38,743 nt of DNA from Candidatus Woesearchaeota archaeon (lineage in GTDB: Archaea; Nanobdellota; Nanobdellia; Pacearchaeales; GW2011-AR1): the NCBI GenBank assembly GCA_964429545.1, contig CAYSCL010000002.1, forward strand, positions 1 to 38,743. The letters are read 5' to 3'. The notes under the pieces were generated by a model. That model saw only the letters and a program-made list of their open reading frames with translations. It was not told where the DNA came from and made no database searches. Positions 7,400-24,062 of the stretch are shown here, piece after piece. The position numbers and the translations under genes were made by a program. Numbering within the stretch: the first letter of the stretch is position 1; every line of letters starts with the position of its first letter.

Positions 7400-7420
7400 G
7401 GAATTTTTTAATTCTTACAT

Positions 7421-7541
7421 GATCTTGTAGCTCAGCCTGGTCAGAGCGCTGGTCTTATATGAAGATGGTCCGTTAGGATTATTATCTCTTGGATTCTTCT
7501 GAGAGAGCCAGAGGTCCCGAGTTCAAATCTCGGCAAGATCA
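7421..7541 (+). tRNA. tRNA-Ile (anticodon UAU) with an inferred 46-nt intron at the canonical 37/38 position (7460-7505)
   Basis: Acceptor stem GATCTTG/CAAGATC, D-arm TAGCTCAGCCTGGTCAGAGCG, anticodon stem CTGGT/GCCAG, loop CT-TAT-A|intron|A, variable loop AGGTC, and T-arm CCGAG-TTCAAAT-CTCGG. The D-arm and variable loop are Ile-like. I could not fully verify a bulge-helix-bulge fold, so the exact splice sites are inferred. Confidence 0.75.
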
Positions 7542-7595
7542 TATTTTTTGAACTCGGTCACGAGTTTGGTACAAAGTTTCATAAACTTTTGTGCA

Positions 7596-7702
7596 ACGGA
7601 GAGTGAAACGATCCTCGTTCGATTCAAACATTCACTAGCGGGCTACGGAAAGTGAAACGACCCTCGTTTGATTCAAACATGCACTAGCAAACGACGGAGA
7701 GC
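7596..7702 (+). repeat. tandem 49-bp repeat, 2.2 copies, with a tRNA T-arm-like core
   Basis: Units acggaGagtgaaacgaTcctcgttCgattcaaacatTcactagc (7596-7639) and acggaAagtgaaacgaCcctcgttTgattcaaacatGcactagc (7645-7688). A third unit starts at 7694. An internal cgttcgattcaaac resembles a T-loop. Confidence 0.7.
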
Positions 7703-7753: not shown

Positions 7754-7811
7754 CTCAACTCCTAAATCCCCCTCTCCAATCCCTAATTCCTAATCCCTAA
7801 CTCCCAATTCC
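7754..7811. repeat. C-rich 10/11-nt unit array, locus 1 of 3
   Basis: ctcaactcctaaatccccctctccaatccctaattcctaatccctaactcccaattcc uses the same units as 21659-21819. It overlaps the last 7 codons and the stop of the lipase-like gene. Confidence 0.7.
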
Positions 7812-9832
7812 AAACCTTTCCTAACATACTCATAAACTTCAGGATATCTATCCACATTCAACATAGTTCGATGAAAAAATTCAACGCCACTGCAATTCCC
7901 TTCAACAAAATAATTCTTCGCCCAAGGCAAATAAGCACTTTCATTCTTAACAATTCCATCGCCAGGAGAACCATCAGTATTACAACCAACACCAACAATC
8001 ATTGAAACATTAATATCTGGTTTTTCTCCAAAATTAAGTTTATTCAAAAACAAACTATCCTTATCCATCATTTCGCAATGTATATTCGCTCCAAAAACAG
8101 GACAACTAGAAAGGACATAACCATCAACGCCATGGTTAGGTGTACCAATCATAACCAAATTATCAACGCTATCTTCCCCAAAAATCTGGACATATCTCCT
8201 AGAAACAAGTCCTCCCATACTATGTGCAACAATATTCACCTTATCCCTATTAGTCATCATCTTAACATTTTCAATAATATCATTAAGTCTCAAAGCATAA
8301 GTATCTAAACTATCTGCTTTAGCTTGTAAACTCAAAGTCTCTTCCTCATTTTGATAAATATCAAAATAATAACTAGCAGCAAAAACAATTTGCCTATTTG
8401 TCCTAGCAAATGTTCCAGTGTTTTCCAATTTTCTAACAATAACATAACCCCCATCAATAACTCCATCTTCAACCAATGATTCTTTAATAGAATTCAAATC
8501 TCCAAGACTACTATCTGCAGAAATCTTATCATTAAAAGAATGTCCATGGACCAAAATTATAGGATATTTTGAAGGATCATCTTGACATTCATTGCCACAA
8601 CAAATCTCACAATCACCCTTATAACAACAAAGAGGCTCTTCAATCTGAATTTCTTTTCCAGAAGAATAATTTGAATAAAAAGGTTTAGAAATAAAACTCA
8701 AATTAAAAGGTTTTAAAGAAGTATAATTGTAGCTAACACTAAAATTCTTCTCCAAATTTTCAAAAGTATTATTAATTATAATAAAAAAATCAGAAACTTG
8801 TTCTTGAGCAATAGATAAATTAAAAACAAAAGTCAAATTTTCCACAAAACCATTATAATCTTTTATTAGAGAAGAAATTTTATGATAATCTTGATTACTA
8901 ATATTCTTTTCATTTTTTAAATCAGAAATTTCATTTCTTACATCCAAACCATCCAAAACAAGATTATTATAGTAAACAAATTTAGAACTAAAATTATCAT
9001 TTATGCCTACAAATAATTCCCTAGTTTCATTAATTTTTTCAAATAACCTATCTCCAAGAACAGCCTCATATTCATAATCTTCCCAATCCTCAATCAATGA
9101 ATCCAAATCGCTACCAATTTGAGTAAGATTATCTCGAGAAAAATTTTCAACCACAATATGTTCAGAAAGAATTTCATACATTTCTTCATTTTCTAAATTA
9201 ATCCTCCTAAGTTCCTCATATTCAAAAATTAATTCCTGTAAAGATTCATTAGCTTCCTCCCTAAAAACTTTTTGCTCTTCACTTAATTCGTAATTCAAAG
9301 CAACCAAATAACTTCTCTTATTTACATCCTCATCAGTTTTACAAAAAGCTGTACGTTGGCTAGAGCAAGCAACTTCAAACAAATACAATTTCTGACCCTC
9401 TCCAATTCTTGGGGCAACCAAAGAATATTCTAATTCATTTGGATTAGAAATTTTGGTAGTAAAATTATTTTTATCTAAAACATAACCATTACTCAAATCT
9501 TCAAAAGAATAACTACAATGGGCTTCACAAAAGAAATTTGTAGAAACATATATGTCAAAATTAACTTTTGCAGTCTCAGAATTCTCGAGAAAAAAATCTT
9601 GGTTATCAGCAGTTAATTTAACCAAAGTATCATTTCCCAACAAAAAATTCACAAACAAATACAACCTAGTACCAAAAATTAAAAAAATTATTAAAATAAA
9701 AGCCGCAATCAAAAAGAAAAGAACCTTATGTTTTTGTTCAATATTTTTTATTTTTTTCCAGAAAGAACTTTTCTTTACTTCAGAGACTTTCTTAATATTT
9801 TTCTTAATCTCTTTTTTCACATCTCTTTTCAT
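7790..9832 (-). CDS. membrane-anchored extracellular alpha/beta-hydrolase (lipase class-2 / PGAP1-like), 680 aa
   Basis: N-terminal basic segment plus transmembrane helix (VLFFLIAAFILIIFLIFG). A long extracellular region carries many N-x-S/T sequons and a Cys cluster CCYKGDCEICCGNEC. The C-terminal domain has ILVHGH, the nucleophile elbow AHSMGG, GTPNHG, GDGIV, and a late His. The first ATG is at 9832 (the track start 9847 is TTG). Confidence 0.7.
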   Translation of the reverse strand: MKRDVKKEIKKNIKKVSEVKKSSFWKKIKNIEQKHKVLFFLIAAFILIIFLIFGTRLYLFVNFLLGNDTLVKLTADNQDFFLENSETAKVNFDIYVSTNFFCEAHCSYSFEDLSNGYVLDKNNFTTKISNPNELEYSLVAPRIGEGQKLYLFEVACSSQRTAFCKTDEDVNKRSYLVALNYELSEEQKVFREEANESLQELIFEYEELRRINLENEEMYEILSEHIVVENFSRDNLTQIGSDLDSLIEDWEDYEYEAVLGDRLFEKINETRELFVGINDNFSSKFVYYNNLVLDGLDVRNEISDLKNEKNISNQDYHKISSLIKDYNGFVENLTFVFNLSIAQEQVSDFFIIINNTFENLEKNFSVSYNYTSLKPFNLSFISKPFYSNYSSGKEIQIEEPLCCYKGDCEICCGNECQDDPSKYPIILVHGHSFNDKISADSSLGDLNSIKESLVEDGVIDGGYVIVRKLENTGTFARTNRQIVFAASYYFDIYQNEEETLSLQAKADSLDTYALRLNDIIENVKMMTNRDKVNIVAHSMGGLVSRRYVQIFGEDSVDNLVMIGTPNHGVDGYVLSSCPVFGANIHCEMMDKDSLFLNKLNFGEKPDINVSMIVGVGCNTDGSPGDGIVKNESAYLPWAKNYFVEGNCSGVEFFHRTMLNVDRYPEVYEYVRKGLELGVRD

Positions 9833-14035: not shown

Positions 14036-14311
14036 ATGACCATAATAAAACCCAGGCATTACGAAATATGGGATGGCCAAATAAAATCTTTAAAAAAAGA
14101 ATGTGATGGTTGTGATTGGTACATAAAAATTGAAAATGAAGAATTATGTGGAGTTGGCAAAGCATTCAAATACCTATCTCCTCCAAAATTAAATAGAAAA
14201 TGTGTAGAAAAAAATAAATTATTTATGACTGATAGATCATTAGAATATTTAATAAAAATAAAAAATGGTAAACCAACAATTGATGCAGAACAATTGAGGT
14301 TATGGGAATAA
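14036..14311 (+). CDS. hypothetical small Cys-containing protein (91 aa) inside the RFC operon
   Basis: It starts 8 nt after the rfcS stop and ends 1 nt before the rfcL ATG. It contains CDGC...C...C. No family recognised. Confidence 0.5.
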   Translation: MTIIKPRHYEIWDGQIKSLKKECDGCDWYIKIENEELCGVGKAFKYLSPPKLNRKCVEKNKLFMTDRSLEYLIKIKNGKPTIDAEQLRLWE

Positions 14312-14312
14312 A

Positions 14313-15494
14313 ATGAAATCTTGGGTAGAAAAATACAGACCAGAAACATTGTCTGCTTTAATAGGGCAAGAAGAAGCAATTGAACAAGTTCAAAATTACT
14401 TGGAAGACTTTCCAAAAGTAAGAAGAAAGGCACTTTTACTTAATGGTCCCCCTGGAATAGGAAAAACGACATTAGTTCACGTATTTGCAAAAGAAAACAG
14501 ATACGAAATATTTGAATTAAATGCATCTGACTTAAGAAATAAAAGATCATTACATGAAAAATTAAAACCAGTATTAGAACAAACTTCCCTATTCAATAAA
14601 AACAAAATAATACTTGTAGATGAAGTTGATGGCCTTTCAGGGATGCAAGACAGGGGAGGCGTTTCAGAATTAGTTACATTAATAGAATCAACAAACTTTC
14701 CAATAATTTGTGCCGCAAATGATGCCTGGGCAAAAAAATTATCTCCTTTAAGGAAAAAAACAAACATCATAGAACTAAAAGACATAAGCCCTGCAGAAAC
14801 AAAACAACTACTAAAAACAATACTAGGAAAAGAAAATAAAACAATAAATGATAAAGTGCTCAACCAGATATCAATCAAGGCAAGAGGGGACCTTAGAAGC
14901 GCAATAAACGACCTTGAAGCCGCAACATCAATGGAAAACCCAGAAGAAATATTCATAGATGAACGAAACAAAAAATTAGACATCTTTAATGCATTAAAAC
15001 ATATTTTTCAAGATAAAGCAAATCAAGAAATGCTTGGAACTTTTGATAAAGTAGATATGCAAATGGATGAAATAATACTGTGGCTAGAAGAAAATATTTC
15101 AAAAGTATACTCTGGAGAAGACTTAGCAAAAGCATATCAAAGATTAGGAAATGTGGATTTGTTCAAAGGGAGAATATACAAACAACAATACTGGCGTTTC
15201 TTAGTTTACGAAAACATATTTGGAAGCTATGGAATTTCGCAAGCAAAAGGAGAAAAAAGAATTGATGGATTCAAAAAATATTCAAAACCAGGAAGAATAT
15301 TGAAAATTTGGCTAAACAACCAAAAACATGGAAAAAAGAAAACGATAGCAATAAAATACGCAGAAAAAACCCACGTAGGATACAAAAGAATAATGTCCCA
15401 ATGGAAAGAAATCAAACCCCAACTAAAAAATCCAATAATCCAAAAAGAACTAAAACTCGACCAAGATGAAATTAATTATGTTATGAAGTATTAG
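14313..15494 (+). CDS. rfcL: replication factor C large subunit (short form, 393 aa)
   Basis: WVEKYRP N-terminus, Walker A GPPGIGKTT, Walker B LVDEVDG, and an AAA+ lid region. No C-terminal PIP-like box is visible. Confidence 0.8.
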   Translation: MKSWVEKYRPETLSALIGQEEAIEQVQNYLEDFPKVRRKALLLNGPPGIGKTTLVHVFAKENRYEIFELNASDLRNKRSLHEKLKPVLEQTSLFNKNKIILVDEVDGLSGMQDRGGVSELVTLIESTNFPIICAANDAWAKKLSPLRKKTNIIELKDISPAETKQLLKTILGKENKTINDKVLNQISIKARGDLRSAINDLEAATSMENPEEIFIDERNKKLDIFNALKHIFQDKANQEMLGTFDKVDMQMDEIILWLEENISKVYSGEDLAKAYQRLGNVDLFKGRIYKQQYWRFLVYENIFGSYGISQAKGEKRIDGFKKYSKPGRILKIWLNNQKHGKKKTIAIKYAEKTHVGYKRIMSQWKEIKPQLKNPIIQKELKLDQDEINYVMKY

Positions 15495-19185: not shown

Positions 19186-20010
19186 CTATTTTCTACCAAA
19201 CAATCTCTTCAACCAACTCTTGCCCAAAACTTCAAAATCAATTCTCAATCTAACTTTATACGGCGCAATTTCTCCAGCATCTTTTACTTTCAAAATTTTA
19301 ATCTTCTTTCCAGCTTTCTTAGCTTCTTTTTTAACCTTCTCAACAATTAATCCCTTATCTTCAATTTTACAAAAATCATAATAATAAATTCTTGTCCCAG
19401 ATTTGACAAACATAAAAGCCTCTTTCAAAAAAGTATCTTCTAACTGAGGTCTAGCCATAACAATAACATCGAAATTTTTCCCTTCTTTCACAAGTTTCGG
19501 AGCAACCTTCTTTATATCTCCGGGAACCAAAATAACTTTCTCTTCAACTTTGTTTCGAGAAATATTTTCTTTCGCATACTCATTTGCTTTCCGATTCAAT
19601 TCATTAGAATAAACAACTTTGGCATTTGTATTTTTAGCAATAACAATAGAAAAAGGAGCAACACCAGCACACATAACTAAAACTTCATCCCCTTTCTTAA
19701 TCATCTCAGAAACTTCTTTTCTCTCATTACTCAACCTTGGAGAAAAATATGTGTCATCAATATTAAACCTGAACTCGCAACCATTCTCTTTATACAAAAC
19801 TTCCTTATTTTTAACACCCGCCAAATGCTTAGTAGTTTGTTTTCTGAGCCTTCCACTAAATTTATGAGCTTTCTCAACAACCGTTTTCAAATTATTATGT
19901 TCTTTCAAAAGTTTCTTCGCAAAAACCTTCTTATCTTTTTCATTTGTATCAAATGGAAAATTCACAATTGCAACATCGCCTAATACACTAAAAGATCTTT
20001 GTTTTGTCAT
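19186..20010 (-). CDS. trm5: Trm5/Taw2 (Met-10+) family tRNA methyltransferase
   Basis: SAM-binding VLVMCAGVAPFSIVIAK followed by VYSNELN and GDIKK, with an N-terminal D2-like domain. The layout is typical of archaeal Trm5/Taw enzymes. Confidence 0.7.
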   Translation of the reverse strand: MTKQRSFSVLGDVAIVNFPFDTNEKDKKVFAKKLLKEHNNLKTVVEKAHKFSGRLRKQTTKHLAGVKNKEVLYKENGCEFRFNIDDTYFSPRLSNERKEVSEMIKKGDEVLVMCAGVAPFSIVIAKNTNAKVVYSNELNRKANEYAKENISRNKVEEKVILVPGDIKKVAPKLVKEGKNFDVIVMARPQLEDTFLKEAFMFVKSGTRIYYYDFCKIEDKGLIVEKVKKEAKKAGKKIKILKVKDAGEIAPYKVRLRIDFEVLGKSWLKRLFGRK

Positions 20011-20104
20011 TATAATATTTGGAATATTTAATTTAAATGACTTTTGTAAAATTTATCTTTTTCCCCACATAAATTCTTATAAAACAAATCAACTTTATTC
20101 TAAC

Positions 20105-20527
20105 ATGATATCACATAAAAGAGCAATAAGAAGAAACATAAAAGAATCAAAAAGAAAATATAAACAGCTTCTAAAAAAACAAAAAGAAGAACAAAAAATC
20201 AGAAAACTCAATGAAGAAGAAAAAGCAAAAAAAGAACCCTCAAAACACATCAAAAAATTAAGATTGCCAAAAGACAAAGAAACCGATTTATTAGAAAAAG
20301 AACAATTAAGACTTTCAGAACAATATGATTTATACGTTTCAAAAATTAAAAATTTAGAAGATAAATTAGAATATGTTTGTTCAAAAACAAAATACTCCAA
20401 CAATAAAGAAAAATACGAAAAATTAATAGAAGAAATCAAAACATATATTCTAAAATTTAATAATCAACTAGATTCAACAGAAGAAGAACTAAAAAAATTA
20501 CAAAAAAGAATCAAAGAATTGAAATAA
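20105..20527 (+). CDS. hypothetical Lys/Glu-rich coiled-coil protein (140 aa)
   Basis: Heptad-like charged sequence. A TATA-like ttcttataaaac sits about 30 nt upstream. Preferred over the antisense ORF 20095..20439, which is low-complexity. Confidence 0.45.
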   Translation: MISHKRAIRRNIKESKRKYKQLLKKQKEEQKIRKLNEEEKAKKEPSKHIKKLRLPKDKETDLLEKEQLRLSEQYDLYVSKIKNLEDKLEYVCSKTKYSNNKEKYEKLIEEIKTYILKFNNQLDSTEEELKKLQKRIKELK

Positions 20528-20593
20528 TTTCCATCTACAACCTAATTTTAATTTCCAAAAATCTAAAATAATTTTCTTAAAAATCTTCTCCAC

Positions 20594-20663
20594 ATTAATT
20601 TAATTCTTAAAATTCAAAGAACCACGTTCTTGAATTTTATTCTATAAATTCTGAACTTGTTCA
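20594..20663 (+). repeat. double-hairpin element, copy A
   Basis: Hairpin 1 is aaaattcaa-A-gaac cac gttc ttgaatttt (20609-20638), followed by tctataaatt, then hairpin 2 tgaac-tt-gttca (20652-20663). Confidence 0.7.
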
Positions 20664-20723
20664 ACAAATTCTCCTTGCTCTCAAAATCCACATATTTATA
20701 AAAATAAAATTCCTAAATCAACC

Positions 20724-21653
20724 ATGAAAGAGGTCAAAAAAGTAACATTAAGCCTATTCACAATAATAGCATTAAATTTAATTTCAGCTTATCAATACGC
20801 AGGAAGTTACAATAATTTTGGAATAGGAAGATTTTTTATGGATACATTAGAATATGTTCCTTTAGCCATTTCATTTCTTGCAATATTTTGGTTATTGTAT
20901 TTTGCAATAAATCGAACAAAGATAAACAATGGTTGGATAATAGCTTTAATATTATCAGTTTTCTCAACCTATGGATTAACAAAATTAAATATTCCAATAG
21001 AAAACATATTTTACAAAATAGGATTTAATCAAGAATTGCTCTTTACAATCGGACCTTGGATTCTTTTAGGTTTAACAATGCTAATAATTTGGAAATGGGG
21101 ATTTGGAAGATTATTTATCATATTTGGATTAATCTTTTTAGCATTAGGAATTTTCAAAGTAGCAGCAGAAAGCGGAGCCGCGATAGTTATTGGTTCAATT
21201 TTCTTAATCATTGGATTAATTTTATATAGAAGAAGAAGATCAAAAGAAAAATTTTACAGCGAAGAAAACATAAGAAAATTAGAAGCAGATGAAAAAAGAG
21301 AAGGCCTTAGAAGATATAGAAGAGAGAGAAGAGGAAGGAGATGGAATAGAGCTAAAACAATTGGTAAAATTGCAGGCACACCCATAAAATGGGGAACACA
21401 AGGAATAGGATTGGCAGGGGAACAATCTAAAAAACAAATAAAAAAAGCCAAAAAACAAGCAAGAAAATACAACAAAATGCAAAGACAATATGACAAATAT
21501 TCAAAAAGAATAAATAAAATAGTTAGTGACAACGGAGGACAAATTCCTTCAGCCTCTTCAAATCCAAAGGATAGTGCTGAATATTCAAGATTAATAAGTG
21601 GAATGAGGAGAATAGAAAAAATTGCAGAAAGAAACAACAGAAATCTGAGATAA
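20724..21653 (+). CDS. polytopic membrane protein with a long basic C-terminal tail (309 aa)
   Basis: Five to six hydrophobic helices followed by an Arg/Lys-rich cytoplasmic tail (RRRRSKEKF...RRYRRERRGRRWNR). Confidence 0.55.
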   Translation: MKEVKKVTLSLFTIIALNLISAYQYAGSYNNFGIGRFFMDTLEYVPLAISFLAIFWLLYFAINRTKINNGWIIALILSVFSTYGLTKLNIPIENIFYKIGFNQELLFTIGPWILLGLTMLIIWKWGFGRLFIIFGLIFLALGIFKVAAESGAAIVIGSIFLIIGLILYRRRRSKEKFYSEENIRKLEADEKREGLRRYRRERRGRRWNRAKTIGKIAGTPIKWGTQGIGLAGEQSKKQIKKAKKQARKYNKMQRQYDKYSKRINKIVSDNGGQIPSASSNPKDSAEYSRLISGMRRIEKIAERNNRNLR

Positions 21654-21658
21654 TCAAA

Positions 21659-21819
21659 CCCCTAATTCCCAATCACCAACTCCCAATTCCCAACTTCTAT
21701 CTCCAATTCCTAATCCCTAACTCCCAATTCCTAATCCCTAACTCCTAATTCCCAACTTCTATCTCCAATTCCCAATCACCAACTCCCAATTCCTAATCCC
21801 TAACTCCTAATTCCCAATT
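21659..21819. repeat. C-rich 10/11-nt unit array, locus 2 (largest; about 15 units, about 21-bp period)
   Basis: ctcc[c/t]aattcc alternates with taatccctaa, caacttctat, or caatcaccaa. There are 12 runs of three or more C on the + strand. The array starts 6 nt after the stop at 21653. Confidence 0.8.
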
Positions 21820-21865
21820 ATCATAGAAATAATTTATAAAAATCTTCATTTAATTTATTCTGCCT

Positions 21866-21935
21866 AACTAATTCTCTAAAATTTTCAGAACCACGTTCGA
21901 AAATTTTATTTTATAAATTATGAATTTTAATTCAT
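21866..21935 (+). repeat. double-hairpin element, copy B (divergent)
   Basis: Hairpin 1 is aaaattttc-A-gaac cac gttc gaaaatttt (21878-21907), followed by ttttataaatt, then hairpin 2 atgaatt-tt-aattcat (21920-21935). Confidence 0.7.
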
Positions 21936-21970
21936 TAAAAATTATTTCCTAAAAAATCCCTTATCAAATT

Positions 21971-22045
21971 CTAACCTCCAATCCCCAACTCCTAATCCCT
22001 AATTGCTAATCCCTAATTTCCAAATACTAACTCCCAATTCCTAAT
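21971..22045. repeat. C-rich unit array, locus 3 (degenerate), abutting the FEN1 stop codon
   Basis: ctaacctccaatccccaactcctaatccctaattgctaatccctaatttccaaatactaactcccaattcctaat. Confidence 0.7.
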
Positions 22046-23083
22046 TCAAAACCACTTATCCAAAGATTTCTGATTCTTAGCTTTTTTTACTTTCTCCAAT
22101 CTTTCAAGTTGAGTATCAATTCTATCCTCATTAAAACCATGCCTTTCAACCAATATTTCTTTAACTTTATCAAAATCAGGTTTAGGAAATTCAATCTCCA
22201 AATCATCAACCCTTGGAGCACGAAATAAACTAAAAATAACTTTCCAATCAAACTGATCCTCTTCATCCATTGCTTCAATCTTATCCTTAACAGCCTCGAA
22301 AATCTTTTCAGGATCCTTATACTCTTTGACCAATTCCAAAGCCTTCTTTTGACCAATCCTAAAAACTCCCTTCGGATTATAATCAGTTCCAACCAAAATA
22401 GCCAAACAAATTAATTGATCCCTATCAATTCCCCATTCATCCAACAAATCTGACAAAATAATTTTCTCAGGCCTAACTTCCACATAACCAGAATAAGTTC
22501 TCTTCTTCCTAGAAACAGTTAAATTTCTAATTAAAATCGGAGCACCAAAAATCAAAGAATCGTAATCTTGGCTAACAATCCCATAGATTTCTTCACGTCT
22601 AGCCAAATAAGCAGCTTGAGCTTCACCTTCAGAAGGCGCCTGTATAACGCAAACCCCCAATGCTTCCAACAATTCTTTACTTTCTTTAATCATTTCATCA
22701 TCCAACCTAGTCAATTGCTGGCCATATTTCCTCATAGATTCAATGTCTTCACTCTGTTTAGCTTCTTGATATTTTTCACGAGCAACATCCCTCACATCCC
22801 CTCTTTTTTTATGAATCTTCGACTTTAACTCAGGAGGGATCCCATCAAAAACATAAACCAATTTAATCCCTTCAGAAATCAAAGCAACATTACGATACAA
22901 AATTCCAGACAAATGAGAAGTTATATTCCCCTCTTCATCCATCAAAGGAGTTCCATCAGCTTGCCTAATAGTAGACAAAAACTGATAAAGAATATTAAAT
23001 GCATCAACACAAACAGTTTTTCCCTTCAAATCAGGAAAATCAATCTCTTTTCTTTTAACAATTTCCCGTATATTCAATCCCAT
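22046..23083 (-). CDS. fen1: flap endonuclease 1
   Basis: N-terminal MGLNIREI, XPG-N (VCVDAFNILYQF) and XPG-I (APSEGEAQAAYL) regions, H3TH GTDYNP, and a C-terminal PIP box QKSLDKWF. The first ATG is at 23083. Confidence 0.9.
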   Translation of the reverse strand: MGLNIREIVKRKEIDFPDLKGKTVCVDAFNILYQFLSTIRQADGTPLMDEEGNITSHLSGILYRNVALISEGIKLVYVFDGIPPELKSKIHKKRGDVRDVAREKYQEAKQSEDIESMRKYGQQLTRLDDEMIKESKELLEALGVCVIQAPSEGEAQAAYLARREEIYGIVSQDYDSLIFGAPILIRNLTVSRKKRTYSGYVEVRPEKIILSDLLDEWGIDRDQLICLAILVGTDYNPKGVFRIGQKKALELVKEYKDPEKIFEAVKDKIEAMDEEDQFDWKVIFSLFRAPRVDDLEIEFPKPDFDKVKEILVERHGFNEDRIDTQLERLEKVKKAKNQKSLDKWF

Positions 23084-23213
23084 AATCAATGTATCAAGAA
23101 CAAATTAATAAATCTTTTTGAAAATTAACTATCCAAAATATTTTCTTCACTAGAATATATGTGATTATAAATTCCAAATATAAATCTTATCTATTTACTT
23201 TAAAATTTCCCAG

Positions 23214-23284
23214 ATTAATTACAATCTTAAAATTCAAAGAACCACGTTCTTGAATTTTAGTCTATAAATTCTGAATTTATTCAG
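23214..23284 (+). repeat. double-hairpin element, copy C
   Basis: Hairpin 1 (23229-23258) is identical to copy A, followed by gtctataaatt, then hairpin 2 ctgaat-tt-attcag (23271-23284). Confidence 0.7.
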
Positions 23285-23296
23285 CAATATTAAAAA

Positions 23297-23770
23297 TCAT
23301 TCTTTCAAATAATTAATTAATTCAAAAAATTCTTCGCCCTTTCTATACATTTCCCCATGTATTGCATGAACTCTTTTAGGATTATTATCTGCGACCCAAT
23401 TAATTGACATTTTTCCCCCCTTAACAGGAACCTTCACAATTTCTGGCTCATATGCCTTTTTTATAATTCCAACTTTTGGTTTCAAATGTTTTGAACTAGG
23501 TAAAATTTTTTTACCTTGAGAAAACAAATAAACATCTAAACAATGTTTGCCATATCCTTGAAAATTCTTATAAATCCATCGCTTAGATTCTCCTTCAGCT
23601 CTTAAATTAATATTATCTAAAAGAAAATTATAATTTTTAGAATTCCTTTCCTCTTTGCTCCTATATCCAAAAAAATCACTCGCCAAATAATCATCTGGCA
23701 TAATATCATAAGGAAGAAAATCAGAAATTTCCTCGTTATCAGAAATTCTTTTTTCAAGTGCTTCTTTCAT
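23297..23770 (-). CDS. hypothetical protein (157 aa)
   Basis: The ATG lies 1 nt after the stop of the upstream 96-aa gene, suggesting translational coupling. No motif recognised. Confidence 0.5.
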   Translation of the reverse strand: MKEALEKRISDNEEISDFLPYDIMPDDYLASDFFGYRSKEERNSKNYNFLLDNINLRAEGESKRWIYKNFQGYGKHCLDVYLFSQGKKILPSSKHLKPKVGIIKKAYEPEIVKVPVKGGKMSINWVADNNPKRVHAIHGEMYRKGEEFFELINYLKE

Positions 23771-23771
23771 T

Positions 23772-24062
23772 TTAATTTATATCCTCCGAAAAATAATGGC
23801 CTTTTCTTTCATTATAAATTTTTTTACCTTCAATATATTCATCTTTCAAATCTAATGGGATAAAACCCTTGTTTTCAAAAAAATGGTAATATAGATAATC
23901 ACTTTTAGATAATTCTAAAAGATTTTTGAAAACTAAATAACTTCTTTCATCTAAAATTTCTTCAACTTCCGAAAAATCAAACTTCTTCGATTTAGAACTA
24001 AGTCTAGGCAAATCCTTCAATTTTGATTCTTTAACAGATGTAATAATTTCCCCCAATTCCAT
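23772..24062 (-). CDS. hypothetical protein (96 aa from the first ATG)
   Basis: The track ORF starts at TTG 24140 and overlaps the RCC1 gene end. ATG 24062 lies about 27 nt downstream of a TATA box (24081-24094, tactatataaagtt on the + strand). Confidence 0.45.
   Translation of the reverse strand: MELGEIITSVKESKLKDLPRLSSKSKKFDFSEVEEILDERSYLVFKNLLELSKSDYLYYHFFENKGFIPLDLKDEYIEGKKIYNERKGHYFSEDIN

Follow-up and report, generated by a model that had tools for sequence, protein, structure and literature searches.

Three copies of a double-hairpin element, here called A, B and C, are found in a 38,743-nt stretch of DNA (the window; C2:1-38743) of the genome of a Candidatus Woesearchaeota archaeon (G000; 792 kb in 67 contigs, 29.5% G+C). 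We hold with moderate confidence that they belong to a lineage-specific family of non-coding palindromic DNA repeats of ~90 bp, similar to repetitive extragenic palindromes (REPs) and MITEs (miniature inverted-repeat transposable elements), and that the spread or retention of these repeats is tied to single-stranded DNA (ssDNA) at the replication fork. An earlier note on the window had left three options: a structured small RNA, a pair of palindromic operators bound by a protein, and a mobile MITE- or REP-like hairpin. The mobile hairpin is the best fit of these, the family being multi-copy, restricted to one lineage and present or absent at given sites among relatives; the small RNA and the operator pair were not supported.

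All three copies lie on the + strand, at the places where the earlier note had put them. The covariance-model matches extend over 20584-20670 for copy A (80.9 bits), 21853-21941 for copy B (78.3 bits) and 23204-23290 for copy C (85.6 bits). In copy A, a 5' motif (tcttctccacattaatttaattc) is followed by hairpin 1, a linker, hairpin 2 and acaaat. The structure described earlier for hairpin 1 was confirmed: a stem of 13 bp, to which a T-A pair at the base is added, carries the loop CAC, and a single bulged A lies on the 5' arm, four pairs beneath the loop. This hairpin occupies 20608-20639 in A (14 bp including the basal T-A pair; bulged A 20618, loop 20623-25), 21877-21908 in B (bulged A 21887, loop 21892-94) and 23228-23259 in C (bulged A 23238, loop 23243-45). 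The linker after it reads t/gtctataaattc in A and C, and ttttataaatta in B. Copy B has a C-rich heptad array on either side and is placed where a membrane-protein gene and fen1 converge, and copy C lies in the gap from the start of fen1 to the stop of a gene for a 157-aa protein.

Copies A and C are, as had been noted, nearly identical (90% over 78 nt), and B is 63% identical to A. The A-to-B change in the stem of hairpin 1 (tcaa to tttc on one arm, ttga to gaaa on the other) comprises three consecutive differences, every one of which is compensated. Hairpin 2 likewise has its own sequence in each copy and keeps its pairing: tgaa cttg ttca in A (20652-20663), atgaat ttta attcat in B (21920-21935) and ctgaa ttta ttcag in C (23271-23284). 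The ssDNA folds of the three copies have z-scores of -3.4 to -5.0 against shuffled sequence, equal on either strand. A 12-mer from the element, AGAACCACGTTC, occurs exactly three times in the window and eight times in G000, or 12 times in G000 if up to one mismatch is allowed.

A covariance-model scan of the genome and its relatives, which the earlier note had proposed, was combined with profile searches of the G000 contigs and located ~25 copies on 14 contigs of G000, A, B and C among them. The same first model found 37 copies in G004 and 16 in G016, two sister species which together with G000 make up the carrier genomes (81-87% complete), and gave weak matches in G002 (three) and G021 (one). 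It found no copies in 18 other genomes of the genus, nor in 18 genomes that represent other genera of the same order. With 58 copies as its basis, a second model found none in 150 further genomes of the order, from 84 genera. The family is young, and confined to a few tiny (Nanoarchaeota-type) archaeal genomes. A search of the literature found nothing that resembles it.

The copies share one layout. An A-rich stretch, TTTCCCnCATTAATTA and ~8 nt precede hairpin 1, the consensus of which is TAAAATT-nnn-A-GAAC-CAC-GTTC-nnn-AATTTTA (13-14 bp, bulged); this hairpin measures 31-32 nt, with 9-10 bp below a 1-nt bulge and 4 bp between the bulge and the 3-nt loop. The linker AGTCTATMAATTC, a short hairpin 2 of variable sequence and GCAAA(TT) follow, with a weak T-rich stretch after GCAAA in the alignment, and some copies end in a C-rich heptad tail. 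In G000, 10 copies lie between co-directional genes (8 antisense and 2 sense), 5 between convergent and 4 between divergent genes, and the copies are not enriched above chance at gene 3' ends. Their spacing is irregular, with three copies inside 2.7 kb and none elsewhere on the 51-kb contig that holds the window. The highest element density in G000 is on contig C41, which encodes RPA, EF-1beta, a HIT protein and a membrane peptidase-like protein. One copy there (C41:3245-3364) has a 35-nt G+C-rich insertion (aggccttgcagatgcaaggtcatcccttgggaaag) exactly in the loop of hairpin 1, and the two arms match different variants of the stem, as though a fusion of two copies had taken place at this point; the ortholog in G004 is intact. 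On another contig (C18:13876-14235), a tRNA-Thr gene (14072-14144) lies between two co-oriented elements, the second of which starts 5 nt past the 3' end of the tRNA gene, on the opposite strand.

The covariation seen among A, B and C extends to the whole family. In the alignment of 58 copies from the three carrier genomes, 91.1% of the cells at paired positions are paired, compared with 74.7% in shuffles, and 200 cells carry double changes, compared with 68; none of the 500 shuffles matched this. Control structures slid by 1-3 columns gave at most 53% pairing. Compensatory changes were found at 15 of the 20 pairs and in both hairpins, and the apical stem of hairpin 1 has the variants GAAC/GTTC, GCAC/GTGC, GCAT/ATGC and AAAC/GTTT, while the loop, the linker and the extrahelical base are conserved. 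The degree of pairing, the double changes and the slid-structure controls together imply that pairing itself is preserved, and so give strong support to the earlier proposal that structure is kept rather than sequence, whether by selection or by mechanism. On the reading preferred here, a need of the element to fold as a single strand keeps the stems complementary, and the hairpins would need to form in single-stranded nucleic acid.

Which strand this might be was addressed through the mismatches at paired positions and through fold energies. A functional RNA made from one strand should tolerate G.U but not A.C. In the alignment the two are equally frequent (38 G.U and 35 A.C, p = 0.8), and the fold energies, for RNA and for DNA alike, do not differ between the strands. 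The constraint on the stems is thus the same for both strands.

The copies are also polar. Within every G000 contig all copies are co-oriented, and the '+' form is on the strand with negative GC skew (the C-rich strand) for 25 of 25 copies on 14 of 14 contigs; when the skew at third codon positions was corrected for coding sense, it had the same sign in all 13 testable contigs. Genes, by contrast, show little of this, with 56% of the protein open reading frames on the G-rich strand and the tRNA genes divided 14:14. On the larger contigs of G004 and G016, ~14 of 18 copies obey the rule, and on one such contig a switch in copy orientation coincides with a switch in the skew of the last gene. The near-absolute polarity of the copies relative to strand bias is a new observation.

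The strand asymmetry on which this polarity is scored is unusually strong in G000 and independent of gene orientation, the third-position GC skew amounting to ~+/-0.4 after correction for coding sense. On contigs C1 and C2 the coding is divided ~50:50, yet genes on the + strand, genes on the - strand, intergenic DNA and third codon positions all lean towards C on the + strand; for intergenic DNA the skew amounts to -0.2 to -0.3, and the C-rich strand has more A than T. The G-rich strand of prokaryotic chromosomes is generally read as the leading strand, and the compositional bias would accordingly mark the direction of replication. Considered together, the strand-symmetric constraint and the co-orientation with strand bias point to ssDNA exposed at the replication fork as the most likely folded species. 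Insertion or retention would then be strand-specific, by analogy with IS200/IS605-type elements, which target the lagging-strand template, and the element would presumably be mobilized by some enzyme acting on it.

The family has turned over between close relatives. Many copies occupy syntenic sites in G000, G004 and G016, where the orthologs differ by compensated changes; copy A, for example, has orthologs at the same site in G016 and G004. G016, the closest relative (Fen1 92% identical), has copy A but lacks copy C, the intergenic gap there being 44 nt. It also lacks copy B, and has an extra gene on the minus strand in place of the array-B-array segment (G016:C11 ~14500-15250, corresponding to window 21654-22045), so the gap in G000 may mark the loss or replacement of a gene. 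In a related strain (run X4, from a 2025 subsurface metagenome), copy C is absent, with a joint that skips 23118-23306, and so is the second heptad array, with a joint that skips 21955-22046 and 13 nt in its place. In G004 a 126-nt insertion bears a copy; the corresponding 95-nt gap in G000 (C2:20011-20104) is empty. On contig C34 of G000 one copy has decayed to a remnant, its counterpart in G016 being intact. Within G000, the copies on C16 and C23 are identical at 83 of 86 positions, although they are at unlinked sites with unrelated flanks; the homology runs ~60 nt into the C-rich heptad tail and then ends. The presence/absence polymorphism that the earlier note had looked to as a sign of mobility therefore exists, between sister species and between strains, and the fallback it had named, a neutral relic duplication, is excluded.

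Several features of the elements could instead reflect a role in transcription, and these were examined against the promoters of the host. Genes of G000 have essentially no leader; TTTAWAAA stands at -29 to -22 and is preceded by an A-rich TFB recognition element (BRE) at -36 to -32 (622-625 gene upstreams were used for the promoter matrix, which was compared with tRNA upstreams); the tRNA genes are preceded by AAAnCTTTAWAAA. The tctataaatt between the two hairpins, which had been taken for a TATA box that might fire rightwards, is not promoter-like under this matrix, and the best matches are on the opposite strand. In 44-46% of copies these minus-strand matches, GGAAATTTTAAGA (from a hairpin arm) and GGGAAATTTTTAAAG, rank above the 99th percentile, with scores below that of the median gene promoter, and CCACA stands immediately upstream of the BRE in only ~2% of genes. 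The 5' motif of the element is unlike BRE/TATA, and if it were a TATA box, the start would fall in the loop of hairpin 1. In Rfam 15, nothing overlaps the elements at E-values up to 10, and in the window just two tRNAs reach the gathering score. No RNA sequencing run was found to contain the locus. A search for targets complementary to the linker, as would be expected of a guide RNA, found none that was convincing in the assembly, which is without rRNA genes. The operator pair was rejected, as a dimeric DNA-binding protein cannot explain covariation that is specific to each copy.

Against this background, it is distinctly unlikely that the elements are small structured non-coding RNA genes, in which an upstream motif of each copy would drive transcription of an RNA of ~70-90 nt that has the two hairpins and, in its conserved single-stranded loop and linker, a binding site for a protein or target. 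The strongly covarying hairpins, the conservation of loop, linker and 5' motif, the weak T-rich stretch after GCAAA, the separation of copies from neighboring genes in any orientation and the synteny between species would all suit such genes. However, an RNA does not account for equal numbers of G.U and A.C mismatches or for fold energies that are equal on both strands, no Rfam family was found even at permissive E-values, and the 5' motif differs from the BRE/TATA of tRNA and protein genes and would place the start inside a hairpin. The linker has no complementary target that was found, the family is confined to three sister species in which it is readily lost, and the elements are polar where tRNA genes are not. 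A module that acts on transcription in cis, in which the hairpins terminate or insulate in both directions and an outward promoter may be included, would explain the strand symmetry, since stems constrained in the transcripts of both strands would be expected to show a Watson-Crick-only constraint of this kind. AAAA and TTTT flank hairpin 1, as in bidirectional intrinsic terminators, the minus-strand GGAAATTTTAAGA and GGGAAATTTTTAAAG matches could supply the promoter, and before a gene of the same sense the element ends 40-53 nt from the ATG, just upstream of the TATA box of the gene. Nonetheless, the copies occur in all intergenic contexts, so a dedicated terminator or 5' leader is unlikely: of 19 copies, 4 have divergent genes on either side and so nothing to terminate, and gene 3' ends hold no excess of copies. 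Both fen1 and the membrane-protein gene have a canonical promoter of their own (that of fen1 at -29), G016 does without copies B and C, and archaeal termination uses oligo-T tracts with no requirement for hairpins. The conserved loop, linker and 5' motif, and a polarity near-absolute beside the 56:44 of genes, would be left unexplained, and the cis-acting module is accordingly an unlikely account of the family.

The polarity would be expected if the elements served the host as a polar DNA signal in replication or chromosome handling, for instance as a hairpin on the lagging-strand template to which a replisome, priming or repair factor binds, or as a barrier or guide sequence whose effect depends on direction. 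In keeping with such a signal are an alignment of the copies with strand bias that far exceeds that of genes or tRNAs, the same polarity in a second hairpin family of the genus (6 of 7 copies; see below), the conserved extrahelical base and loop, and conservation above that of the flanks at syntenic sites. Single copies are, however, dispensable between sister species and strains, the spacing is irregular (the cluster of three in the window has no counterpart on the rest of its contig), and the sequence family has been replaced within one genus. Known polar signals such as Ter, KOPS and Chi are, moreover, recognized in duplex form, for which a covarying hairpin is not required. A host-serving signal is for these reasons quite improbable. 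The best fit to the observations is a REP/MITE-like DNA repeat, selfish or semi-domesticated, the insertion or survival of which would vary with the replicative strand that carries it.

Among known elements, the family most resembles those that are handled as ssDNA. IS200/IS605 elements have subterminal hairpins and insert as ssDNA into the lagging-strand template, and REPs are bulged hairpins mobilized by related enzymes of the Y1 type; the 'long hairpin with bulge' of REPs has a basal stem, a bulge of 1-3 nt, a short upper stem and a loop of 2-5 nt (PMC6006769). Like REPs and their composites (bacterial interspersed mosaic elements, or BIMEs, and REPINs), the present elements are short imperfect palindromes of bulged layout, intergenic and numerous (25 copies in G000), with covarying stems, a species-specific sequence and a patchy distribution among relatives. 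They differ from REPs in that the unit also includes another hairpin of unrelated sequence and a 5' motif that is conserved, with a C-rich tail in some cases, in that the host is archaeal, and in their near-absolute polarity; the cognate gene of REPs is usually flanked by them, whereas no gene for a Y1 enzyme or a REP-associated tyrosine transposase (RAYT) was found in the carriers. Copies are single and neighbors co-oriented, and the inverted doublets of REPINs and BIMEs were not seen. With IS200/IS605 and its gene-less derivatives, the haloarchaeal palindrome-associated transposable elements (PATEs), the family shares hairpins that would be recognized in ssDNA, an extrahelical base, and the lack of terminal inverted repeats and target duplications. 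In IS200/IS605 an orientation bias arises from fork-coupled insertion (PMC6006769), which may be compared with the 25 of 25 copies here, for which the replication direction is read from composition. The transposase TnpA of IS200/IS605 was not found, TnpB is in one carrier, there are no defined cleavage-site tetranucleotides, and the present element is much shorter than PATEs. Classical MITEs (Correia, ERIC, Sulfolobus SM) are similarly small, non-coding, multi-copy, intergenic and variably present between relatives, and can carry promoter-like or terminator-like sequences; here, however, no inverted repeat relates the 5' motif to the 3' end, two presence/absence sites have no target-site duplication, and the internal hairpins covary rather than being conserved. 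Further candidates were rejected: integron attC sites (the hairpin is too short, the R-box geometry wrong and the copies outside cassette arrays), CRISPR repeats (the stems vary between copies), C/D or H/ACA guide RNAs (boxes and guide region are absent), origin recognition boxes (the copies are scattered on 14 contigs) and dif/Xer sites (the family is multi-copy, with a center of only 3 nt).

A number of observations weigh against an ssDNA repeat that is mobilized at the fork. The Y1 (HUH) transposase domain PF01797 has no match in G000, G004 or G016, and is present in 5-6 non-carrier genomes of the genus; among the carriers, TnpB (zinc ribbon) is found only in G004 and a reverse transcriptase only in G016. 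Across the genus, the presence or absence of none of these three enzymes tracks the carriers, and the proteins encoded on C41 include no enzyme candidate that would make it a REPtron-like locus. The carriers are 81-87% complete, so the absence of these enzymes is not proven. A REP would carry a conserved GT[AG]G (or CGTC) tetranucleotide 0-2 nt 5' of the foot of the hairpin; the alignment has no such tetranucleotide, and at the foot one strand reads ..ATCTT|AAAATT, the other ..ATAGACT|AAAATT. Hairpins 1 and 2 are unlike in length, loop and sequence, whereas one TnpA dimer must recognize both ends of an IS200/IS605 element. At two presence/absence sites (the G004 insertion and copy C) there are no terminal inverted repeats or target-site duplications, and the inserted stretches exceed the conserved core, with ragged 5' parts. 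Three clear exceptions to the polarity occur in G004 and G016, and on no contig is there a skew switch or an origin to anchor the skew to replication direction, the only Cdc6/Orc1 match being truncated by the end of a 4.6-kb contig. Many syntenic copies, finally, are stable, with flanks far more diverged than the element, which is also compatible with a function for the host.

Some copies are associated with C-rich heptad arrays, of which G000 has 11, in the window and on contigs C3, C6, C10, C16, C23, C24 and C34. Copy B, which is the dyad in the core of the gap at 21654-22045, lies between the array at 21657-21819 (+ strand; units such as ccctaat and ctcccaa; co-oriented with the elements) and a second at 21976-22047 (+ strand), directly 3' of the copy; a further array of the ccctaat and ctcccaa types is at 7760-7825. 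Every array that could be checked is on the C-rich strand. Next to four of them stands a co-oriented hairpin element, several copies having the array as a 3' tail, and one is the tail of the duplicated unit on C16 and C23. The strand complementary to the heptads has GGG every 7 nt, a spacing at which it could fold into a quadruplex. Elsewhere in the window, a 49-nt tandem repeat adjoins an intron-containing tRNA-Ile(UAU) gene (7420-7542), and G+C-rich repeats (atgcgaagcgactgtgtcggcgagcatcc and relatives) stand beside tRNA genes at 7596-7698, at the end of C41 and on C25, C26 and C30.

A second double-hairpin family was found in two other genomes of the genus, which lack the present one, at G001 L096, L100, L103 and L105 and at G021 L097 and L101. 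Its design is TTTTCCGCA, a covarying hairpin, CGAGGACCGAA, a second covarying hairpin and TGAGTCCAATT. An 11-mer of this family has seven exact occurrences in G001, where ~0.05 would be expected, two of its copies flank fen1 in G001, and six of seven copies have the same polarity. Like the present family, it combines a 5' motif of the TTTTCC type, a covarying hairpin, a conserved linker, another covarying hairpin and polarity; its sequence is unrelated and is missed by the present covariance models, and a GGAC/GTCC helix that closes around hairpin 2 gives it a three-way shape. It is possible, though doubtful, that both families are archaeal ssDNA hairpin elements of a REP/IS200 type that operate without Y1: they would fold at the fork and be inserted or retained in a single orientation, the agent being a class of enzyme so far unconnected with transposition or the replication and repair machinery of the host, with the G-rich tails formed by the heptads as part of the mechanism.

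Around copies B and C, the promoter of fen1 is of textbook form (caaaaaga tttattaa, then 21 nt, with the ATG at 23083; window 23084-23125), and the TTG start at 23089 in the list of open reading frames is probably not the real one. The copies also affect assembly. Contigs assembled from the source samples (runs X1-X3, for window 19800-24000) stop within hairpin 1 of copies A and C, where they overlap at 20610-20634 and 23230-23254. Double-hairpin repeats thus fragment assemblies, and they may also give rise to chimeric joins, of which two alternative G004 contigs upstream of the membrane-protein gene may be an example.

The classes of RAYT described are bacterial (PMC6006769). A hairpin repeat that has no gene of its own and fills intergenic DNA in genomes of <1 Mb is of interest because REPs and RAYTs are known as bacterial systems, and its most interesting features are, in our judgment, its strand polarity and the lack of a known enzyme. 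To our knowledge, RAYT-type enzymes have no archaeal members, and REP-like repeats with their enzymes have been a bacterial story. Hairpin repeats such as these can be mistaken for small-RNA genes, operators or origins. The family would point either to an unknown route of ssDNA mobilization in DPANN archaea or to a use of hairpins that is linked to replication.

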